64,000 bases of DNA, from contig CAVQEQ010000001.1 in assembly GCA_963711565.1 (NCBI GenBank), forward strand, positions 672,001 through 736,000. The letters are read 5' to 3'. Source of the stretch: an uncultured delta proteobacterium (lineage in GTDB: Bacteria; Desulfobacterota; Binatia; Binatales; Binataceae). The notes beneath the pieces are model-generated. The model worked only from the letters and a program-made list of their open reading frames with translations. It was not told where the DNA came from and did not search any database. How positions within the stretch are numbered: the first letter of the stretch is position 1; every line of letters starts with the position of its first letter. This document shows positions 41,034 through 64,000 of this stretch, piece after piece. Made by a program: the position numbers and the translations under genes.

Positions 41034-42551
41034 ATGTTGCAAAGATTACAATTCTCACCTCAAGCGCACGCTGCGGATCAGCGGCGGTCGAGATTCAGCC
41101 ACGATTCGGGAGCTCGAGGACCGCGCGGACTCCTACGATCCATGCCAAGGCTTGGCTTGATCGCGGCTGGCGTCGCCGGCCTGCTGATCCTTGGGCTACT
41201 GAGTCATCCTGCTGGAGGCACGGTGATTGTCCTGGCGATAGCAGCGGCGGGGATTCTGCCGTGGGCAATCTATCGCACGAGCAGTCACGTTTCCTGGGTG
41301 CCGCTTGTGCTCGTGCTGATCGAAGCGGTGGCTGCAAGTTCTTTCGCTGCCACCTCGGATTACCAATTGGGTGCCCTTGTCCGATATCCACTTGGGTTCC
41401 TATTCATTTCGCCGTTTCTTTCCTCCCTGTGGAAATCGGGGATTCTGGGCAAGGGAGGATTTCGCGACTACGCAATATATCTGATTTGGGCGCTGGTCAG
41501 CGTGTCCTATTCGATCCTGCCGGAGGTCTCAATCGCCAGGGTATTCGCCGCTGCAATCCCATTTTGCGCGTTCTGCGCAATAGCCGTAGAAGTAAGAAGC
41601 GGCGATGATGCGCGGCGCGTGATGGGAGTTCTTCTCACTGGTTGCGGAATTGTTGTCGCAGCCAACTACCTTGCCATGTTGATTCCAGGCAACACGGCCT
41701 GGCAGTTGGATACCGATGCCGGAATGCTGCGCTTCGTCGGATTTCTTACCGAGCCCAATGAGATCGGCAACTTGACGCTGGCCACGCTGGGCGCGGGTTT
41801 CGGCTATTGGCCGCTAGCGAGCGGACGGAAAAAGGTGCTAGTCGCCCTGGCGATGATTGGCGCGTTGGTGCAGGTCCTGATGGCAGACTCGCGCTCGCCG
41901 CTCGTCGGGATCGCAATCGGATGCGCTCTTTACATGCTGTTTAAGTATCGAGCCAAAGGCGCGATCGGCATTGCCGTCCTGTATGTAATCTTCTACATGT
42001 CGACCTTCGCGATTCCCTCGATCCACGCTTACATGGATCGGGGCGACGTCGCGAGCTTTACGGGACGCCAGGTCGCATGGGATTTTGCCGTTCATAGCAT
42101 CAGGCAGAGTCCGCTTTTGGGCTATGGCTACGAGGTCGAGGGTCAAATCCTTAAGAATCCGTATTTTCCGGGTTGGGATGAGGTCTGGAACCTGGGCTAC
42201 CAGACATCTCTGCACGACGGTTATGTGTCCCGCGCTATAGGTCTCGGCGTGCCGGCGTTGCTGTTTTGGTTGTTCCTTACGCTGCGACCGGCGATCAGTT
42301 GTCTTTTCTCCAAGCGCGACCCGTGGCGGTTAAGATCGATCGTGCCACTCGCACTGTTGCCCGTACTGATCTTGAATTTCACGGAATCGATTTCAGACTT
42401 CCGCTCCTTCGCCGGCCTTCTGATGGCATTGTCATGGACGATTCTCGAGCGCGAAAGACTCTTCGCCAAGGCAGAAGCCGCGCTACGAGTGAAATCAGTG
42501 GAGGCGGAAAAGACTCCCTTAGTGCGAGCCTTGCAGGCAGGTACCGTATGA
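41034..42551 (+). CDS. O-antigen ligase/Wzy_C family membrane protein (probable EPS polymerase)
   Basis: Many TM segments; RFVGFLTEPNEIG, ADSRS, TGRQVAW, PLLGYG, LHDGY. The start may be ATG 41142. Confidence 0.85.
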   Translation: MLQRLQFSPQAHAADQRRSRFSHDSGARGPRGLLRSMPRLGLIAAGVAGLLILGLLSHPAGGTVIVLAIAAAGILPWAIYRTSSHVSWVPLVLVLIEAVAASSFAATSDYQLGALVRYPLGFLFISPFLSSLWKSGILGKGGFRDYAIYLIWALVSVSYSILPEVSIARVFAAAIPFCAFCAIAVEVRSGDDARRVMGVLLTGCGIVVAANYLAMLIPGNTAWQLDTDAGMLRFVGFLTEPNEIGNLTLATLGAGFGYWPLASGRKKVLVALAMIGALVQVLMADSRSPLVGIAIGCALYMLFKYRAKGAIGIAVLYVIFYMSTFAIPSIHAYMDRGDVASFTGRQVAWDFAVHSIRQSPLLGYGYEVEGQILKNPYFPGWDEVWNLGYQTSLHDGYVSRAIGLGVPALLFWLFLTLRPAISCLFSKRDPWRLRSIVPLALLPVLILNFTESISDFRSFAGLLMALSWTILERERLFAKAEAALRVKSVEAEKTPLVRALQAGTV

Positions 42552-43375
42552 CACGAACCACCGTTATCAAAGTCCTGGCTTGCGCCAGCGGCGCGGTGGT
42601 TGTGCTATTCATTCTGTCGCGGCCTTCTACTTCCTCTTTGACGCCTGCGACTTCGATTCCTTATTTTTCACTGCGGCCGAGTGGAACGCAGCTGCCATCG
42701 GGAAGCAGGTGCGCGACAGCCGTCGTGGGCGACAGGTTTGAGCCTCAGCCCGGGAACGCCGAACCGAATAGCATCACGCCAACCGCGTCGGACCTGGCCA
42801 CTTACCAATCCGAGGTTGCCCGCGGCGAAGGTGGCGCTCCCGGAAACTATCTTACCCGAGTGGATGGCCAGTTCACCGGTAGTACCGACGCGATTCTCAA
42901 GTGGGCGTCGTGCAAGTGGGGCTTCGACGAAAACGTGACGCGCGCCACCGCGGTCAACGAGACTCATTGGCGCCAGCTCGAGCTCGGGGACATTGGCAAT
43001 GGGACGAGCATCGGAATTCTACAAATCAAGTCTCGCGACTATCCTTCGAGCTGCGAAGCGGTCGCATCAAGCCAGCATACTGCCGATGTCACGAACCCGG
43101 ATTGTTACTCGTACCTGAGTACAGCCTTTGCCGCTGATTACAAGCTGGCTCAGCAGCGAGCATGCTTCGACGGTAAAATCGACTATCTGAGGGATGATAG
43201 TCCATCCGCCGGATATCCGTCCTATCCCGATGGGACGCCGGAGGAGATGATGTGGGGATGCGTAGGATGGTGGTTCTCTGGACATTGGTTCGATTCGGAT
43301 GCGTTATCCTACATATCGCAAGTTCAATTCTATCTGAATGACCAGGCATGGTTGCACCTGGCCACTGCAGAATAG
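42548..43375 (+). CDS. Secreted or membrane-anchored protein with a lysozyme/lytic-transglycosylase-like domain (paralogue A)
   Basis: ATG 42548 (ATGA overlap); N-terminal hydrophobic helix; WASCKWGFDENVTRATAVNETHW...SIGILQIK resembles the SLT 'ES' and 'GLMQ' motifs. Confidence 0.75.
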   Translation: MTRTTVIKVLACASGAVVVLFILSRPSTSSLTPATSIPYFSLRPSGTQLPSGSRCATAVVGDRFEPQPGNAEPNSITPTASDLATYQSEVARGEGGAPGNYLTRVDGQFTGSTDAILKWASCKWGFDENVTRATAVNETHWRQLELGDIGNGTSIGILQIKSRDYPSSCEAVASSQHTADVTNPDCYSYLSTAFAADYKLAQQRACFDGKIDYLRDDSPSAGYPSYPDGTPEEMMWGCVGWWFSGHWFDSDALSYISQVQFYLNDQAWLHLATAE

Positions 43376-43434: not shown

Positions 43435-43484
43435 TTGTAAAATATACAAAATTGTAATTCCTACCAGGTCTGGAAAATATACAA
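43435..43484. promoter_or_regulatory. Three tandem TTGTA-N5-TACAA-like boxes
   Basis: TTGTAAAATATACAA (43435), TTGTAATTCCTACCA (43452) and CTGGAAAATATACAA (43470), in an AT-rich intergenic patch. Confidence 0.6.
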
Positions 43485-43906
43485 AATAAGATTTGAGTCG
43501 CGCTTGAAAAAGTTGAACGAACATTATGCCTCTGCTAATGTTCGCGGCGCGGTGAGTCGTGGCGCCGCAGACATTAGTTTAGGTCCAAGCGCGCGGGTCT
43601 CTTCGTCATTCGGCACCCCACCATAATCGGCCCGGTTTGGGCATAGTTGGCAATTCAAAACGCGAGGGGAGTTTCAGACTCTGAGGCTGTGAGTCCAGGT
43701 CATCTGGGGAGAGACCTGTGCGGATAGGGTTTCGTTTTCAGGCCTGCTAAGGCATCACGCCACTGAAATAGCCCGCGCCTTAGCGCGGAAGCGTGTCGGC
43801 GTTAGGCCGGCGAACGGTGAGGAGTACTCCTCCACCTTCATCGCCGAAGCCGGCGCGGCACTGTCCGCGAGACATATTTGCGCACGCCTGGGGAGGGCGA
43901 TGTTTT

Positions 43907-45364
43907 ATGCGCGGATTGAAAGACGGGTATGGTCTTGCGGGTTTAATCGTAATTCTCGTTTGCGGCTTCCTGGTGCTCGATCTGGGTGGCCCTATGAAAG
44001 CGGCCGCCAGCCCGGTGAAGATCACTTCGCCCGCGGGTGGCAGCGTGGTGAGCGGCACGGTGCCGATCTCTCTCTCGATGAAGTCCAAGGTCTCATTCGC
44101 GAACGTATACGTAGACGGCATATATCTCGCTTCGACCCCAGCCGCAATTTCGTGGTTATCAACCAATGCCGCCAACGGCATTCATACAATTTTAGCCGAA
44201 GGCTACGACTCAACCAGTCAACTGGTTGGAACTTCCTCCAAAAAAGTCCGCGTAAAAAACGAACCGACTCCGACCGCGACACCCACGCCGAGCGCAGGAG
44301 TGACGATTTCGTCGCCGAAGAGCGGCGCGACGGTTTCCAGCACGGTGTCTATTGTGGTGCAAAACGTCGAACCGGTCAGTTGGGTTAATTTCTACGTCGA
44401 TGGGACCTGGGTCGCGTCTTCTCCTCCGTTCACCCTCTCCTGGAATTCGGCAAGCGTGGCGAACGGCGAGCACACCATCACGGTCAACGGATACAACGAC
44501 AGTAACGGATTAATCGCGACCGCCGCCATGAACTTGAACGTTAAAAATGGTTCGGCAACCCCCACTCCCGCCCCTTCTCCAACTCCGGCGCCGAGCGGCA
44601 GTCCGACCCCGAAGCCCACCGCCAGTCCGTCGGCGACCGCCACTCCTTACTACTCACTCTTGCCGAGTGGCTCAGCTCTGCCGTCCGATAGCACCTGCGC
44701 CTCCGGTGCTGCGAGCGACACCTTCGAGCCAGTGCCCGCAAACGCCACATACAACAACACCATGCCGACTGCATCTGACATGACCACTTACAAGTCCGAG
44801 GCCACTGACGGTGAAGGCGGGGCTCCAGGGAGTTACCTGGTGCGCGCGGATGGCCAGTTCACCGGCACTACCGATGCGATTCTCAAGTGGGCGTCATGTA
44901 AGTGGGGCTTTGACGAGAACGTGACGCGAGCTACCGCGGTCAACGAGACTCATTGGATTCAGAACCATATCGGAGACATCGGCAACGGCACGAGCCTGGG
45001 AATCCTCCAAATCAAGTCGTCCGATTATCCATCCACCTGCGAAGCGGTCGCGTCGAGCCAGGATACTTCGGACGTGACCGATCCTAATTGCTATTCGTAC
45101 CTCAGCACGGCCTTTGCAGCTGATTATAAGCTGGCCCAGCAAAGAGCATGTTTCGAAGGCCAGGTCAGCTACCTAACGTCGGAAACACCGACCGCAGGAT
45201 ACCCGACTTATCCGAACGGTACATCTGAGCAAATGATGTGGGGGTGCGTTGGATGGTGGTACTCGGGGAGTTGGTACGATTCAGGCGCTTTGAGCTACAT
45301 ATCGCAAGTTCAAGGATACCTGGCGGCCGAGACTTGGTTGCAACCCGGAGGAGTAGGAGAATAG
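43907..45364 (+). CDS. Secreted protein with two bacterial Ig-like domains, Pro/Thr linkers and a lysozyme-like domain (paralogue B)
   Basis: ATG 43907 after GGGAGG; signal peptide; VKITSP..G..VSGTV / YVDG / NG.HTI repeats; C-terminal domain nearly identical to 42548..43375. Confidence 0.85.
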   Translation: MRGLKDGYGLAGLIVILVCGFLVLDLGGPMKAAASPVKITSPAGGSVVSGTVPISLSMKSKVSFANVYVDGIYLASTPAAISWLSTNAANGIHTILAEGYDSTSQLVGTSSKKVRVKNEPTPTATPTPSAGVTISSPKSGATVSSTVSIVVQNVEPVSWVNFYVDGTWVASSPPFTLSWNSASVANGEHTITVNGYNDSNGLIATAAMNLNVKNGSATPTPAPSPTPAPSGSPTPKPTASPSATATPYYSLLPSGSALPSDSTCASGAASDTFEPVPANATYNNTMPTASDMTTYKSEATDGEGGAPGSYLVRADGQFTGTTDAILKWASCKWGFDENVTRATAVNETHWIQNHIGDIGNGTSLGILQIKSSDYPSTCEAVASSQDTSDVTDPNCYSYLSTAFAADYKLAQQRACFEGQVSYLTSETPTAGYPTYPNGTSEQMMWGCVGWWYSGSWYDSGALSYISQVQGYLAAETWLQPGGVGE

Positions 45365-45446: not shown

Positions 45447-45461
45447 TTGTAATAACTACAA
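45447..45461. promoter_or_regulatory. TTGTA-N5-TACAA box upstream of the EPS operon
   Basis: TTGTAATAACTACAA inside the longer inverted repeat CGCTGAA...TTCAGCG. Confidence 0.55.
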
Positions 45462-45653
45462 TTCAGCGCGGGCCCGTTCGTCTTTCAGAATGACACGATA
45501 CTCTCCATCGCGCTGATTCTGTAACCAAGTCTTATCCCCTGATCATCTTATCGCCGATTCAGCAGCCCGACTCGGCTTGTAATCATTTCACAGTACGCGC
45601 AGCCCATCAGACCCGACGCTCCCATTTCCGCACCCTTTCGGATCGATCGGCAA

Positions 45654-45668
45654 TGGCACGCGAGTTGC
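45654..45668 (+). promoter_or_regulatory. sigma-54 promoter of the main EPS operon
   Basis: TGGCACGCGAGTTGC, a perfect consensus match. Confidence 0.8.
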
Positions 45669-45775
45669 CATTGGTAGTCCGAGCGCGCACGCAAATGCTG
45701 GCGCTGAATCAGTGGGCGGGTTTTGACCTATCGAGAGAGCCGATCTCGCTGGAATTCTTGAGGATGCGTGAGACC

Positions 45776-60484: not shown

Positions 60485-61244
60485 CAAGCCGTCCCTACGG
60501 ACCCTCGTGGTCGGACTCGGCGAGGTCGGCGCGGCGCTGGCGGCAATCCTGGACCGCACGGAACCTGTGCTCCGCCACGACCTCGATCGCGTGAAGATTT
60601 CCGAACCAATCGGGACGATGCACCTGTGCGTCCCGTTTCAGTCGCGCCATCAGTTCGAAACCGTCGCGCTCGGATACATAGAACGCTTCCAGCCGTCGCT
60701 GACCATCATCAACAGCACGGTGTTGCCCGGAACCACCCGCTCCATCGCGCAGAAGAGCGGGAGCGCGGTCGCGTACAGCCCGGTTCGGGGCAAGCACGTC
60801 CGCATGCAGCGAGACCTGATGCGATATCGCAAGTATGTCGCCGCACCCGATCCTGAGGCCGCCGCCGGCGCCGAAGAACATTTTCGGGCGGCCGGCATGG
60901 AGACTCAGCGGATGACCGAAGTCGAGTCGCTCGAGCTCGCGAAACTCGCCGAGACCACTTACTTCGGCGTCTGCATTGCTTTCGCGCAGGAAATCAATCG
61001 GTATGCCGAGTGCGTCGGCGCGGACTATTCGGAGACGATCGGGTTTTTCGACGAAGTCGATTTCCTGCCGCGCCAGCGTTACTTCCCCGGCTTCATCGGC
61101 GGCCATTGCGTGATCCCCAACATCAAACTGCTCCTCGAGCTCGCGCCATCGGCGGCGCTGGAAGCAATCCTGGATTCCAATGAACGACGTGCACATGAAC
61201 TTGAATCGCGACCCGGCGCCACTTCCGCGACCCTCTCCGAGTGA
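60459..61244 (+). CDS. Short UDP-glucose/GDP-mannose dehydrogenase family protein (no C-terminal domain)
   Basis: VVGLGEVG, CVP, INSTVLPGTT, YSP, ELAKLAETTY, PGFIGGHCV. ATG 60459 after AGGAG. Confidence 0.8.
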   Translation: MDVKERPNDKPSLRTLVVGLGEVGAALAAILDRTEPVLRHDLDRVKISEPIGTMHLCVPFQSRHQFETVALGYIERFQPSLTIINSTVLPGTTRSIAQKSGSAVAYSPVRGKHVRMQRDLMRYRKYVAAPDPEAAAGAEEHFRAAGMETQRMTEVESLELAKLAETTYFGVCIAFAQEINRYAECVGADYSETIGFFDEVDFLPRQRYFPGFIGGHCVIPNIKLLLELAPSAALEAILDSNERRAHELESRPGATSATLSE

Positions 61245-62616
61245 CGCGAGCCCGACCAGGCCAAGATGCCGGCTGATCGGTAACAGCCCGGAGTTCCCGC
61301 TCGCCGCCGGACGAGTCGCGCGCCTGCGCGGTCTTGGCGTTGAGCTCTGCCTCCCGGATTGCGCCGCGCTCCCTTCCGGGTTTGCGGCGCGCAATCAGCT
61401 GATCGCGGTCAACTTCGACCTGTTGTCGCGTCTCGACCCCGCCACGAAAACCCGTCTGCGCCAAGCCGCCGAAAGCGGCGCGACGATCTATATGCGAGGT
61501 GGTCTGGAGCACGGCCGCGTGTATTCATTGCGGCCGTTCTCGGATCAGCGATTCGAATTCTCAATCAAGCCCGCCGACGGTTATCAATTCTCTACTCATC
61601 CGATTCTTCCCGCGGCAATCGCGGGTGAACGAGTCGCCGGCCGCCTGGACATGCCGCATGCAGCCGGTCTGGAAGATCCGGCCCGCCCGATATTATCGAG
61701 CGTAGATCGTTTCGGACCCGCCAGGCCGTCGATTTTTGCGATTGAAATTGGCGCCGGTATCGCGATTTTCGATCTTCACGCCGACCACGAGGTCGAAGAC
61801 CTGGAGTTGCTGGCAGATCTCGCGGCGCCATCGAGACGAGCTGCCACCGTTGGGGCGCTTGCGGCAGTTGATCGGGCAGCCGGCCGCAACGTGGCGATTC
61901 AGCCGGCGGTCAATCTGGTGATCGACGATCGTCCCGTCAACTACGACTACTTCAACGCCGGCAAGCTCGACGGGTTCCTGCGACATCTCGAGGCTCAATG
62001 TCCGGGCATCCACACCGACTTCGCCTGGACGCCGATCCACACGCGTCCGCATCGCCGTTATCTCGAAGTGCTGAGCCGATACAACACGGGCTTTGTGTGG
62101 CACGGATTCCTTCGCCACATCGACCATCGCACCATCACGGATTTCGAATCCCACCTGAGCGCTGGCCGTGCATGCGTTAACGAGATCTCGCGCGAGTATG
62201 GCGTTCGCATTCAACCGGTGATGATTTTTCCCTTCGAGAAGGACACGGCGCGCGCCGAGGAACTCCTGCGCCGTGCAGGGTTCGTCGCCAAGGTGCAGTC
62301 GGCCGGCGGCTTTCCCCCGCCGGCTTACTACCGTCTGCGTGACGTCGCGGAGGAGCCGCCGCTCGATGATTCGTTCAGCGTGGTTTTTCGCGAGTCAATC
62401 GACCTGCTGAGCCGCGATCGAATGCTCGCGATGGCGACATTGGGAATGCCCATCATCGCGCTGGCCCATCCGCGCGATCTCGCACTGCGCCGGTTTTGCG
62501 GGCGCGATCGCGCCGCGATGTCGTACTTCGATTCTGTTCTCCGATTCGCAGCTGACAAGTCGCTGAGACCGAAATCGCTTGAGTCGATCGCGGCGGAAGT
62601 TCCCACTGCCCGCTAA
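61180..62616 (+). CDS. Hypothetical protein with a possible deacetylase-like C-terminal domain
   Basis: Long ORF in operon orientation; LVIDD, WHGFLRHIDH, IFPFE and AHP resemble CE4-fold motifs. Confidence 0.65.
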   Translation: MNDVHMNLNRDPAPLPRPSPSDASPTRPRCRLIGNSPEFPLAAGRVARLRGLGVELCLPDCAALPSGFAARNQLIAVNFDLLSRLDPATKTRLRQAAESGATIYMRGGLEHGRVYSLRPFSDQRFEFSIKPADGYQFSTHPILPAAIAGERVAGRLDMPHAAGLEDPARPILSSVDRFGPARPSIFAIEIGAGIAIFDLHADHEVEDLELLADLAAPSRRAATVGALAAVDRAAGRNVAIQPAVNLVIDDRPVNYDYFNAGKLDGFLRHLEAQCPGIHTDFAWTPIHTRPHRRYLEVLSRYNTGFVWHGFLRHIDHRTITDFESHLSAGRACVNEISREYGVRIQPVMIFPFEKDTARAEELLRRAGFVAKVQSAGGFPPPAYYRLRDVAEEPPLDDSFSVVFRESIDLLSRDRMLAMATLGMPIIALAHPRDLALRRFCGRDRAAMSYFDSVLRFAADKSLRPKSLESIAAEVPTAR

Positions 62617-62626
62617 TCTCGGTTAA

Positions 62627-64000
62627 TCAGTTATCGTGATTGCGCGAGGGTTCGGTCGCCGAATCGCGATCCTTCCCCTGGTAGCGGACCAAGCGGTTGT
62701 AAAGAGTCTTCAGGCTGATCCCCAGCATCTGCGCGGCGCGCACTTTGTTGCCGTTGGTAAAATCCAACGTCTTGAAGATCAACTCGCGCTCGATCTCGTC
62801 CATCGTTTCGCCGATGCGCAATTCGAAATGCGGGCCCTTGCGGCCTGCGCGCCGGATGTCGTTGGGAAGATCCGGGGGCGCGAGCAGTGGCCGGCGCGCA
62901 ACGATCGTGGCGCGCTCGATTACGTTTCGCAGTTGCAGGACATTTCCGGGCCATCGATTCGCCCGCAGGATTTCCAGGCACTCGTTGTCGATTCCGGTGA
63001 CGGGTTTCCGGTGCGAGTCCGCCGACTGCTTGATAAACGCTTCGACCAGCGCGGGAATATCTTCGATTCGGTCGCGCAGCGGCGGCAGCTCGATAGTGAG
63101 CGAGTTGAGACGAGAATATAAATCCTCGCGCAACCGACCGTGATGCGTCGCCTCGGCCGGGCTCCGACTGGAGGCGGCGATCAAGCGAACGTCCAGCGGT
63201 ATTTCGGTTTCGCTGCTGCCACCCATCCGGCGGATCCTTTTGTCCTCGAGCGTTCGCAGCAGCCTGGCCTGAAGTTCGATCCCCAGCTCGGCAATTTCGT
63301 TGAGCAACAGCGTGCCGCCGGCGGTCATCGCGAGGAATCCCTCGCGGCGGCTATCGGCGCCGGCAAACGCGTTACGTTCATGGCCCCAAAGTTCGCTCTC
63401 CATGAGGTTGTTGGGCACTGCGGCGCATGTGACTTCGGCGTAGGGACCGCCGCGGCGCGTGGACAACTGATGAATCGTGCGCGCCGCGAGTTTCTTGCCG
63501 GTTCCGCTTTCGCCGAGAATCAACGCCGGGATGGAGCTGTCCGCCGCTTCCTCAATCAGCCTCATCACGCCGCGCATCGCAGGCGAGTTGCCGATGATCG
63601 GTCCAAGCGTACCGGTCTCGATCAACTTTCGGCGCAGGCGCTGGTTCTCTTCGGCGACGCTGAGTTGGGTCGCCAGGTTAGTGAGCACCACGCTTAGATG
63701 ACTCGAATTGATCGGTTTCAAAAGAAAATCGTAAGCTTCAGACTTAATTGAGCGGATCGCGGCGCCGAAGTCCGCCTCTTGGGCCATAACAATTGCCGGG
63801 ATATCAAATCCCTGCGCGTGCAGCTCGCGCAAATATTCGGCAGCGCTTTTCTCTTGTCCTCCAAAATCGATCAGCAGCACATCCGGCTCAAAGGTCTGGA
63901 CCTGCTTGAGCACCTCGATTCCTTCGACGGCCCGGACCTGGAAGCCCCACGAACTCATTCGTTCGCGCAAAGTCTCGCGGGTGGAGCGGTCGCTCTCTGC
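62627..64000 (-). CDS. NtrC-family REC-AAA+-Fis-HTH regulator with degenerate activator motifs; 5' end lies beyond the window
   Basis: The frame is open to 64000. GESGTGK, ESELWGHE, REDLY.RL, PPLRDR.ED, WPGNV, GNKVRAAQMLGISLKTLYNRL. Confidence 0.92.
   Translation of the reverse strand, partial: AESDRSTRETLRERMSSWGFQVRAVEGIEVLKQVQTFEPDVLLIDFGGQEKSAAEYLRELHAQGFDIPAIVMAQEADFGAAIRSIKSEAYDFLLKPINSSHLSVVLTNLATQLSVAEENQRLRRKLIETGTLGPIIGNSPAMRGVMRLIEEAADSSIPALILGESGTGKKLAARTIHQLSTRRGGPYAEVTCAAVPNNLMESELWGHERNAFAGADSRREGFLAMTAGGTLLLNEIAELGIELQARLLRTLEDKRIRRMGGSSETEIPLDVRLIAASSRSPAEATHHGRLREDLYSRLNSLTIELPPLRDRIEDIPALVEAFIKQSADSHRKPVTGIDNECLEILRANRWPGNVLQLRNVIERATIVARRPLLAPPDLPNDIRRAGRKGPHFELRIGETMDEIERELIFKTLDFTNGNKVRAAQMLGISLKTLYNRLVRYQGKDRDSATEPSRNHDN

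Follow-up and report, generated by a model that had tools for sequence, protein, structure and literature searches.

A conserved NtrC-type pseudo-activator beside an exopolysaccharide operon, a possible antagonist of its intact paralog

Atypical enhancer-binding proteins, among them TyrR, DhaR, HupR, PhhR, HsfA, NtrX and the NtrC proteins of Caulobacter and Rhodobacter, combine a sensor, an AAA+ domain and a helix-turn-helix (HTH) with a defective GAFTGA motif, and some of them repress. Known relatives without GAFTGA have been treated as sigma-70 regulators. RedR1/RedR2 and FleQ/FleT are hetero-oligomeric activator pairs, and FleN, the antagonist of FleQ, is an unrelated ATPase and not a dead paralog. 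To our knowledge, the known inhibitors of sigma-54 activators (NifL, PspA, HrpV and FleN) are all unrelated proteins. About 110 homologs with deviant GAFTGA, often with Thr changed to Pro, were counted in a survey of 2011 (PMC3162934), and interacting enhancer-binding paralogs are already known (PMC9542535, PMC7175178). In this study, we describe a gene of the same architecture at the end of a 64,000-nucleotide window (the whole stretch of DNA analyzed, G000:C1:672001-736000) from an uncultured delta proteobacterium, next to an exopolysaccharide (EPS) operon. Its product, here called the pseudo-activator, has lost several of the residues that serve catalysis or couple an activator to sigma-54 and retains its HTH. 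We read it as a sigma-54-induced feedback antagonist of an intact paralog, acting by competition for DNA boxes and/or by trapping the paralog in an inactive dimer, and give this reading a probability of about 0.5.

The gene continues past the end of the window, with its start codon 57 bases beyond (Table 1). G000 is the source genome, handles such as G004 and G015 denote related genomes, and positions above 64000 continue the window numbering. The protein matches Sigma54_activat (PF00158, 2.7e-54) and a Fis-type HTH (PF02954, 3.8e-12), and the source names of its homologues point to Candidatus Binatus. All the motif changes listed by an earlier sequence-only reading of the window (GKK, NAFAGA, LNE, ASS and GNVLQL) are present in the full gene sequence. 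Its account of the receiver also holds, with the acceptor Asp (D64) and the Lys (K114) retained and Ala at the Thr position (residue 92), and the HTH that it called canonical matches the Fis-type domain and has a recognition helix invariant in the clade described below. It did not mention that the receiver has Ser (S22) where the Mg-binding Asp is expected, that the switch Asn has become Thr (T210), or that W224 and S315 are new residues that have become fixed.

Matches above 60% identity were found in 17 of the 165 family genomes, all of them in the genus; 15 are degenerate and two, in G015 and G016, are intact. Two further degenerate copies, in G020 and G060, are frameshifted in their assemblies and bring the carrier genomes to 17. 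When the family genomes were pooled with the best 120 of 238 database proteins, the degenerate group, from uncultured soil bacteria with Ca. Binatus-like genomes, comprised 89 distinct sequences, and 66 others were intact. The degenerate sequences form one clade (stem branch 0.27, Shimodaira-Hasegawa-like approximate likelihood ratio support 100, in a tree on a 37-row subset) that adjoins the intact G015 and G016 proteins, and a single origin is indicated. The intact sister in G015 occupies the same locus, where it converges on the last gene of the EPS operon.

The loop 1 Thr of GAFTGA is kept by none of the 89 clade members (A in 66, P in 22, E in one) and by 66/66 intact relatives. The acidic residue after the Walker A Lys is likewise absent from all 89, its place always being taken by a basic one (K in 87, R in two); sensor I Asn and sensor II Arg are absent throughout, and the switch Asn persists in nine members. 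W224 is fixed, and S315 replaces the Tyr beside an arginine finger in 86/89. The sequence-only reading had allowed for canonical motifs in orthologues; the Thr, the Walker A Glu, the sensor I Asn and the sensor II Arg survive in no member of the clade. A complete phosphorylation site (Mg-binding Asp, acceptor Asp, Ser/Thr switch and Lys) was found in 0/87 clade members vs 61/63 intact relatives. The P-loop GxxGxGK is retained in 87/89 and both arginine fingers in 78/89, and Walker B is DE in 63/89 and NE in only two. Thus the degeneration first listed is derived and clade-wide only in part: LNE (2/89) and the N of NAFAGA (3/89) are real in the source genome but are not clade features, and two residues, Q in GNVLQL and the leading S in ASS, are shared with the intact sisters, which carry GNVRQL and ASN.

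Five of the 11 columns with a catalytic or sigma-54-coupling function are affected by loss, vs seven of the 74 remaining invariant columns of AAA+ (Fisher p=0.007); the 15 invariant columns of the HTH are all intact. By these counts the loss is targeted to functional columns. The ratio of nonsynonymous to synonymous substitution rates (dN/dS, Nei-Gojobori), computed from 103 of the 105 pairs among 15 genomes after two pairs with high dS were dropped, is 0.16 overall at dS near 0.9; by domain it falls from 0.32 in the receiver to 0.13 in AAA+ and 0.05 in the HTH. The corresponding values of the intact paralog are 0.10, 0.07 and 0.08. Alignment of orthologues and dN/dS, the check proposed by the sequence-only reading, therefore describes degeneration that is clade-wide and under purifying selection, and the protein is by these measures a maintained pseudo-activator.

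That the gene is a decaying pseudogene or a sequencing artefact has scarcely any probability. The frameshifted copies in G020 and G060 and the faster evolution of the receiver (0.32 vs 0.10 in the paralog) would fit it, but the same assemblies also split other genes (wzc in G060, neighbours in G020), pointing to assembly indels, and 89 distinct members with overall dN/dS of 0.16 and an invariant HTH speak against decay; purifying selection across 15 genomes led us to reject a pseudogene. Contigs from runs X1 and X4, which belong to two studies and one of which is possibly the source sample, each span 62900-63900 in a single piece. None of their listed differences touches a motif residue, so that every altered motif residue stands where the sequence-only reading had considered that raw reads might show canonical motifs; 10 of the 15 listed X4 differences are silent. 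The LNE codon is unchanged in short contigs of runs X6 and X8 too, and protein P0001, 96% identical, has the same motifs; run X9 gave no contig matching the locus at 96% likeness. A sequencing or assembly error was rejected on the agreement of the X1, X4, X6 and X8 contigs and P0001, which disposes of the earlier caveat about the TCGA context at Walker B.

Published mutants bear on what such a protein could do. Thr-to-Ala substitution in the GAFTGA of HrpR or HrpS abolishes activation (PMC3105312), and PspF rings of alternating wild-type and T86A subunits do not activate efficiently (PMC4132715). In FleQ, the Walker A Lys and Glu help to polarise the bond and to coordinate the metal, and hydrolysis likely involves the sensor II Arg (PMC10723142). 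Therefore, we infer that the pseudo-activator is very likely unable to activate sigma-54.

The altered pocket might instead serve a ligand-gated regulator, in which the P-loop with its new fixed Lys would bind a nucleotide or second messenger without hydrolysis and switch DNA binding, as in the control of FleQ and VpsR by cyclic di-GMP (c-di-GMP). The P-loop is nearly always kept, the basic residue replaces a Glu that coordinates metal in FleQ (PMC10723142), the sensor II Arg is gone, and fixation rather than drift suggests selection on the pocket. However, FleQ residues R138, R144, E330 and R334 correspond to I146, G152, A340 and Q344 (by offset mapping, not structure), with no Arg or Glu in the clade consensus; the equivalent of R185 alone is kept (R193, 72/89) and is common to the family. 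With four of the five FleQ residues absent, a FleQ-type c-di-GMP site was rejected. The fixed Lys may also merely lock the pocket off, and we hold a ligand gate to be very unlikely.

A sigma-54 promoter lies upstream of the dead gene in 16 of 17 carrier loci (the G011 contig ends first) and in both intact sisters, and a box of the KGTA-N5-TACM type with at most one mismatch stands 66-102 bp upstream of that promoter in 16/16 carriers. Co-transcription of the dead gene from this promoter is putative because an intervening open reading frame (ORF) or its remnant is found in 13 of the 16 loci. The boxes at 43436-43483 and 45448-45460 and the EPS promoter at 45654, all picked out by the sequence-only reading, are real and conserved. 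Exact boxes lie 30-260 bp from five of the 152 sigma-54-like sites in G000 (0.28% for random positions), and four of these five are in the same island; a strict TGTA-N5-TACA scan misses the GGTA variant.

Metagenomic loci link the box to intact activators. Of 80 such loci, 76 fall outside the clade and nearly all of these carry an ISLKTLYN recognition helix; of the 76, 71 had a readable loop 1, and the Thr is kept in 71/71. The exact box occurs 50-109 bp upstream in 15/80 sigma-54 promoter regions (9 loci, some possibly kin) vs 0.54 in shuffles, with none for spacers 3, 4, 6 and 7 and two for spacer 8. Intact activators with the recognition helix of the dead protein therefore probably use this box as their enhancer. 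A similar arrangement is predicted for PrsR, whose site ends in TTTACA about 63 nt before the sigma-54 site (PMC1569441).

The source genome contains rpoN and 17 full-domain PF00158 activator-family loci, none other of them near this island. The closest two-component activator (47-48% identity) is intact and lies at C1:127.6-129.0 kb of G000, followed by a sensor kinase and a BON-domain gene. This paralog is present in 17/17 carriers, in G045 as partial pieces only. The sequence-only reading had placed a canonical partner just beyond the window; in the source genome it is about 600 kb away, but six relatives have a second copy about 3 kb from the dead gene (G009, G020, G048, G059 and G061, and G045 as a fragment). 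The paralog ortholog is followed by the same kinase in 3/7 genomes of other genera, and a duplicated two-component operon is the probable origin of the pair. The gene of the paralog itself has a conserved GGTAA-N3-TTACC variant of the box upstream, including in genomes in which no dead copy was found. In the paralog upstream region (L063 and 13 relatives), a box stands roughly 60-90 bp, by eye, before a sigma-54-like site; the GG at -24 of this site is often replaced by CG or TG, and the arrangement suggests weak positive autoregulation. Two further intact activators of the subfamily, both without a receiver (G000:C4:55932-56858 and C2:40681-41613), with 49-54% identity over AAA+-HTH and other recognition helices, could also be partners. 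Two hybrid kinases of the island (CHASE3; MEDS-PAS) could feed the system.

Paralog residues 1-390 and pseudo-activator residues 13-400 were folded together. The predicted heterodimer scored 0.67, against 0.00 for the best of three controls, with a predicted local distance difference test score of at least 80 for the partner and at least 80% of contacts agreeing between runs; the mark applied is reached by 116/157 solved pairs and 2/215 mismatched pairs. The predicted interface consists of the receiver and the coiled-coil linker, and the receiver face involved is what we take to be alpha4-beta5-alpha5.

From these observations the following feedback is proposed. The paralog, phosphorylated through its linked kinase, would activate box-bearing sigma-54 promoters, namely those of the EPS operon, of small stress genes and the one upstream of the dead gene. 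The dead copy would then accumulate with a delay, so that control would be exerted by its amount and not by phosphorylation, and would occupy the boxes through its unchanged HTH. In addition or instead, the paralog may be held in receiver/coiled-coil heterodimers or in mixed rings that are predicted to be unable to remodel sigma-54. The outcome would be a capped or pulsed response. The motif losses and their conservation, the synteny, the promoters and the boxes are observed, and the binding steps and the sign of regulation are inferred. That G004 keeps the dead gene, with no match to EPS Wzc or to the tandem boxes found there, also speaks for the antagonist. The sequence-only reading had offered a repressor or dominant-negative protein, and that view has gained much support of a circumstantial kind: clade-wide loss, purifying selection, the shared helix, the paralog in all 17 carriers, a promoter of the regulon's type and the predicted heterodimer.

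Several points weigh against the proposed antagonist. Most characterised atypical enhancer-binding proteins act on sigma-70 promoters (PMC6158489). Between the promoter and the dead gene lie 700-1200 bp in 13/16 loci, with another ORF or remnant and, in several, a hairpin. Across five genomes, the box by itself is no more frequent genome-wide than a reversed control, and the strongest array in G000, the tandem one, has no sigma-54 site within 350 bp and a sigma-70-like promoter instead. The recognition helix of the paralog, SAKTLYNK, differs at two positions from that of the pseudo-activator, and its boxes lean to GGTAA..TTACC, the EPS boxes to TGTAA..TACA; therefore the two proteins may favour different sites. 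As to the heterodimer, an inactive NtrC1/DctD dimer with such a receiver and coiled-coil arrangement has been described (PMC10696123), and the score may reflect memory of that solved NtrC1 structure; close cousins also pass the mark (10/12 colicin pairs). The prediction therefore indicates only that the faces are compatible. Moreover, a GHG-type motif linked to strong off-state dimers (PMC10696123) is lost in the pseudo-activator, and the interface is barely more conserved than the rest (0.77 vs 0.70, p=0.045).

Instead of opposing the paralog, the pseudo-activator might assist it as a co-activator or DNA-targeting subunit that recruits it to TGTA..TACA boxes, so that mixed oligomers activate the EPS promoter in the manner of HrpR/HrpS or VnfA1/VnfA3. 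The HTH is nearly identical to that of the intact G015 sister, the P-loop (87/89) and both arginine fingers (78/89) are mostly retained, a heterodimer is predicted, and paralog hetero-oligomers do co-activate in Azotobacter (PMC9542535). However, HrpR/HrpS require both GAFTGA Thr residues (PMC3105312) and the clade keeps none, mixed wild-type/T86A PspF rings are inactive, the predicted interface is of the off-state type, and the Tyr beside the arginine finger has become Ser in 86/89. We judge this role quite unlikely.

The main alternative is a relay from sigma-54 to sigma-70 in the manner of TyrR, HupR or VpsR, in which the pseudo-activator, once produced from its sigma-54 promoter, would bind the boxes at 43436-43483 and activate or repress, without ATP hydrolysis, the weak sigma-70-type promoter of the downstream Ig-domain gene and perhaps further promoters. 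A matrix trained only on relatives (AT-biased, with 94 hits) scores the first box of this array highest in the whole genome, and no sigma-54 site is near in G000. The array is followed by a conserved TTGAAC-17-TAnnnT with extended -10, and about 70 bp separate the centre of the third box from the inferred start. Tandem boxes of this pattern were found in 17/165 family genomes, and all 16 of those in the genus carry the ortholog. Known proteins without GAFTGA also work mostly at sigma-70 promoters (PMC6158489, PMC3162934, bioRxiv 10.1101/2023.06.06.543975). Against the relay, the promoter is below the threshold of a consensus scan, and the array is older than the degeneration, since G015 has it too, at 165-182 bp from a sigma-54 promoter that points the other way. 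In G004 (96% complete) and G046 the dead gene is kept, and neither the tandem pattern nor a match to EPS Wzc was found; the G004 island is without the operon. Therefore the dead gene is tied to the wider stress island rather than to EPS alone. A relay of this kind is rather unlikely, and it is compatible with the feedback antagonist, with which it could coexist.

Table 1. Features of the pseudo-activator locus, in window numbering
Feature	Position	Strand	Remarks
Three tandem TGTA-N5-TACA boxes, 17-18 bp period	43436..43483		Conserved
Putative weak sigma-70-type promoter TTGAAC-17-TAATGT, extended -10	43513..43541	plus	Conservation only
Distal box	45448..45460		About 200 bp upstream of EPS sigma-54 promoter; in 9/10 loci
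Proximal box	45578..45590		About 70 bp upstream of EPS sigma-54 promoter; in 10/10 loci
Sigma-54 promoter of wza-led EPS operon	45654..45669	plus	Identical in 10/10 loci including G015 with intact ortholog
Pseudo-activator gene (REC-AAA+-Fis HTH)	62627..64000 in window; full ORF 64057-62627	minus	476 aa
Fis-type HTH	62681..62806	minus	S-L-K-T-L-Y-N invariant in 86/86 sequences covering the helix
Sensor II, L374 replacing Arg	62936..62938	minus	L/M/Q in 89/89
Sensor I, S297 replacing Asn	63167..63169	minus	S/T/I in 89/89
Walker B NE, N253 (LNE, 63299-63301)	63296..63301	minus	NE in 2/89 only
Loop 1 NAFAGA, N229-A234	63356..63373	minus	Thr replaced in 89/89; fixed W224 precedes
K189 replacing Walker A Glu (GKK)	63491..63493	minus	K in 87, R in 2 of 89
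Degenerate receiver domain, residues 14-125	63683..64000	minus	S22 for Mg-binding Asp, D64 kept, A92 for Ser/Thr, K114 kept
-24/-12 sigma-54 promoter upstream of pseudo-activator	64149-64164	minus	Past window end
GGTA-N5-TACC box	64249-64261		Midway between pseudo-activator promoter and divergent sigma-54 promoter at 64336

Several further features were seen around the array and the operon. A second tandem-box array lies within the EPS region of G060 (G060:C1:665109-665137). The gene starting at 43907 encodes Big_7 domains and, by eye, a lysozyme-type motif, and it shares a C-terminal domain, 72% identical, with its neighbour (genes 42551-43375 and 43907-45364). Its leader (window 43661-43800, plus strand) is about 360 nt long, highly conserved and apparently structured, with a long closing stem, in 12/12 aligned loci; it gave no Rfam hit, and no compensatory pairs were found among the 49 predicted. 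It may be a cis-regulatory RNA of a kind not yet described. The EPS operon ends with a gene (61180-62616, plus strand) that encodes 478 aa without a Pfam hit, is 52-76% conserved in relatives and usually lies tail to tail with the pseudo-activator. The island (27000-75000) contains many sigma-54-like promoters before small stress-type genes (by eye PfpI-like, DUF1328-like, BON-domain and Thr-rich lipoproteins).

Comparable losses are found outside the clade. Among the best 150 representatives at 50% identity, P0142, P0145, P0195 and P0198 are also without the loop 1 Thr, and each has two or three other motif residues missing; they are distant (35-39% identity), each is a single-member cluster, and a 27-row tree requires five separate origins of degeneration. 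In P0195 the Walker A Lys is followed by a basic residue and the sensor II Arg is missing; P0142 has an extra C-terminal domain. These four separate proteins hint that a switch from activator to brake recurs. More generally, we tentatively suggest, with some doubt, that sigma-54 systems have dedicated dead-paralog antagonists, transcribed by the activator and sharing its DNA specificity and dimer face, and that the clade records the turning of a self-amplifying activator, as in G015 and G016, into a brake. If true, AAA+ transcription activators would also be subject to control by a pseudo-enzyme, and the laboratory ring-poisoning mutants would have a natural counterpart. A ready-made series for comparison is provided by the paralog, the dead copy and its intact sister. 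Such genes are also a warning for annotation, in which they are counted as activators (NtrC, HydG and AtoC in the sources).

Known families place the protein only broadly. Among the best 25 of 59 NCBIfam families, the protein scores below every cut-off, those of PrsR, AtoC, NtrC, ZraR, NtrX and TyrR included, and ESM Atlas gave generic sigma-54 activator clusters only. In the open-access literature we found no description of the clade or of a dedicated dead-paralog antagonist, although the supplement of PMC3162934 on proteins with defective GAFTGA may name comparable cases; atypical enhancer-binding proteins and interacting paralogs are known, and it is the role of dedicated antagonist paralog that we have not found described. 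The best NCBIfam hit is PrsR of the PEP-CTERM box system, at 330 bits vs a cut-off of 503, and its predicted site recalls the box.

VpsR, proposed by the sequence-only reading as an analog, is a distant match (E 1.8e-33). Like the clade it is linked to an EPS operon and is without GAFTGA, and no ATPase was detected for it (PMC6158489); the source-genome copy also shares a Walker B Asn. However, VpsR has Walker B ND and a loop 1 deletion, where the clade mostly has DE and no loop deletion, and its targets are described as lacking sigma-54 promoters (PMC6158489, PMC3162934), in contrast to the invariant sigma-54 promoter of the EPS operon studied here. The analogy is weak, then: the loss of GAFTGA stands, and the mostly intact Walker B, the absence of the FleQ-type c-di-GMP residues, the sigma-54 EPS promoter and the gene kept in G004 without a Wzc match go against it. 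FleQ resembles the clade in its phosphorylation-incompetent receiver and in repressing or activating EPS genes, but it keeps GAFTGA and ATPase, and its c-di-GMP residues are absent from the clade.

VnfA1 activates transcription of vnfA3, and contact between VnfA1 and VnfA3 has been suggested to lower vnfDGK expression (PMC9542535); these are interacting paralogs too, but the Vnf partners co-activate. Both partners of HrpR/HrpS need the GAFTGA Thr, which the clade is without. NtrC1 and DctD share the coiled-coil linker with a predicted off-state dimer face, but they are active activators. As for the atypical enhancer-binding proteins, a defective GAFTGA with a retained HTH is found in the clade as well, and its boxes are found both at sigma-54 promoters and ahead of a single putative sigma-70 promoter. 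The atypical proteins described so far mostly carry loop deletions, often keep phosphorylation or the use of ATP, and regulate sigma-70 promoters. The clade, in contrast, has an intact loop length and has lost five coupling residues and the phosphorylation site together; its gene lies behind a sigma-54 promoter of the regulon whose box fits its recognition helix, and an intact paralog always co-occurs.

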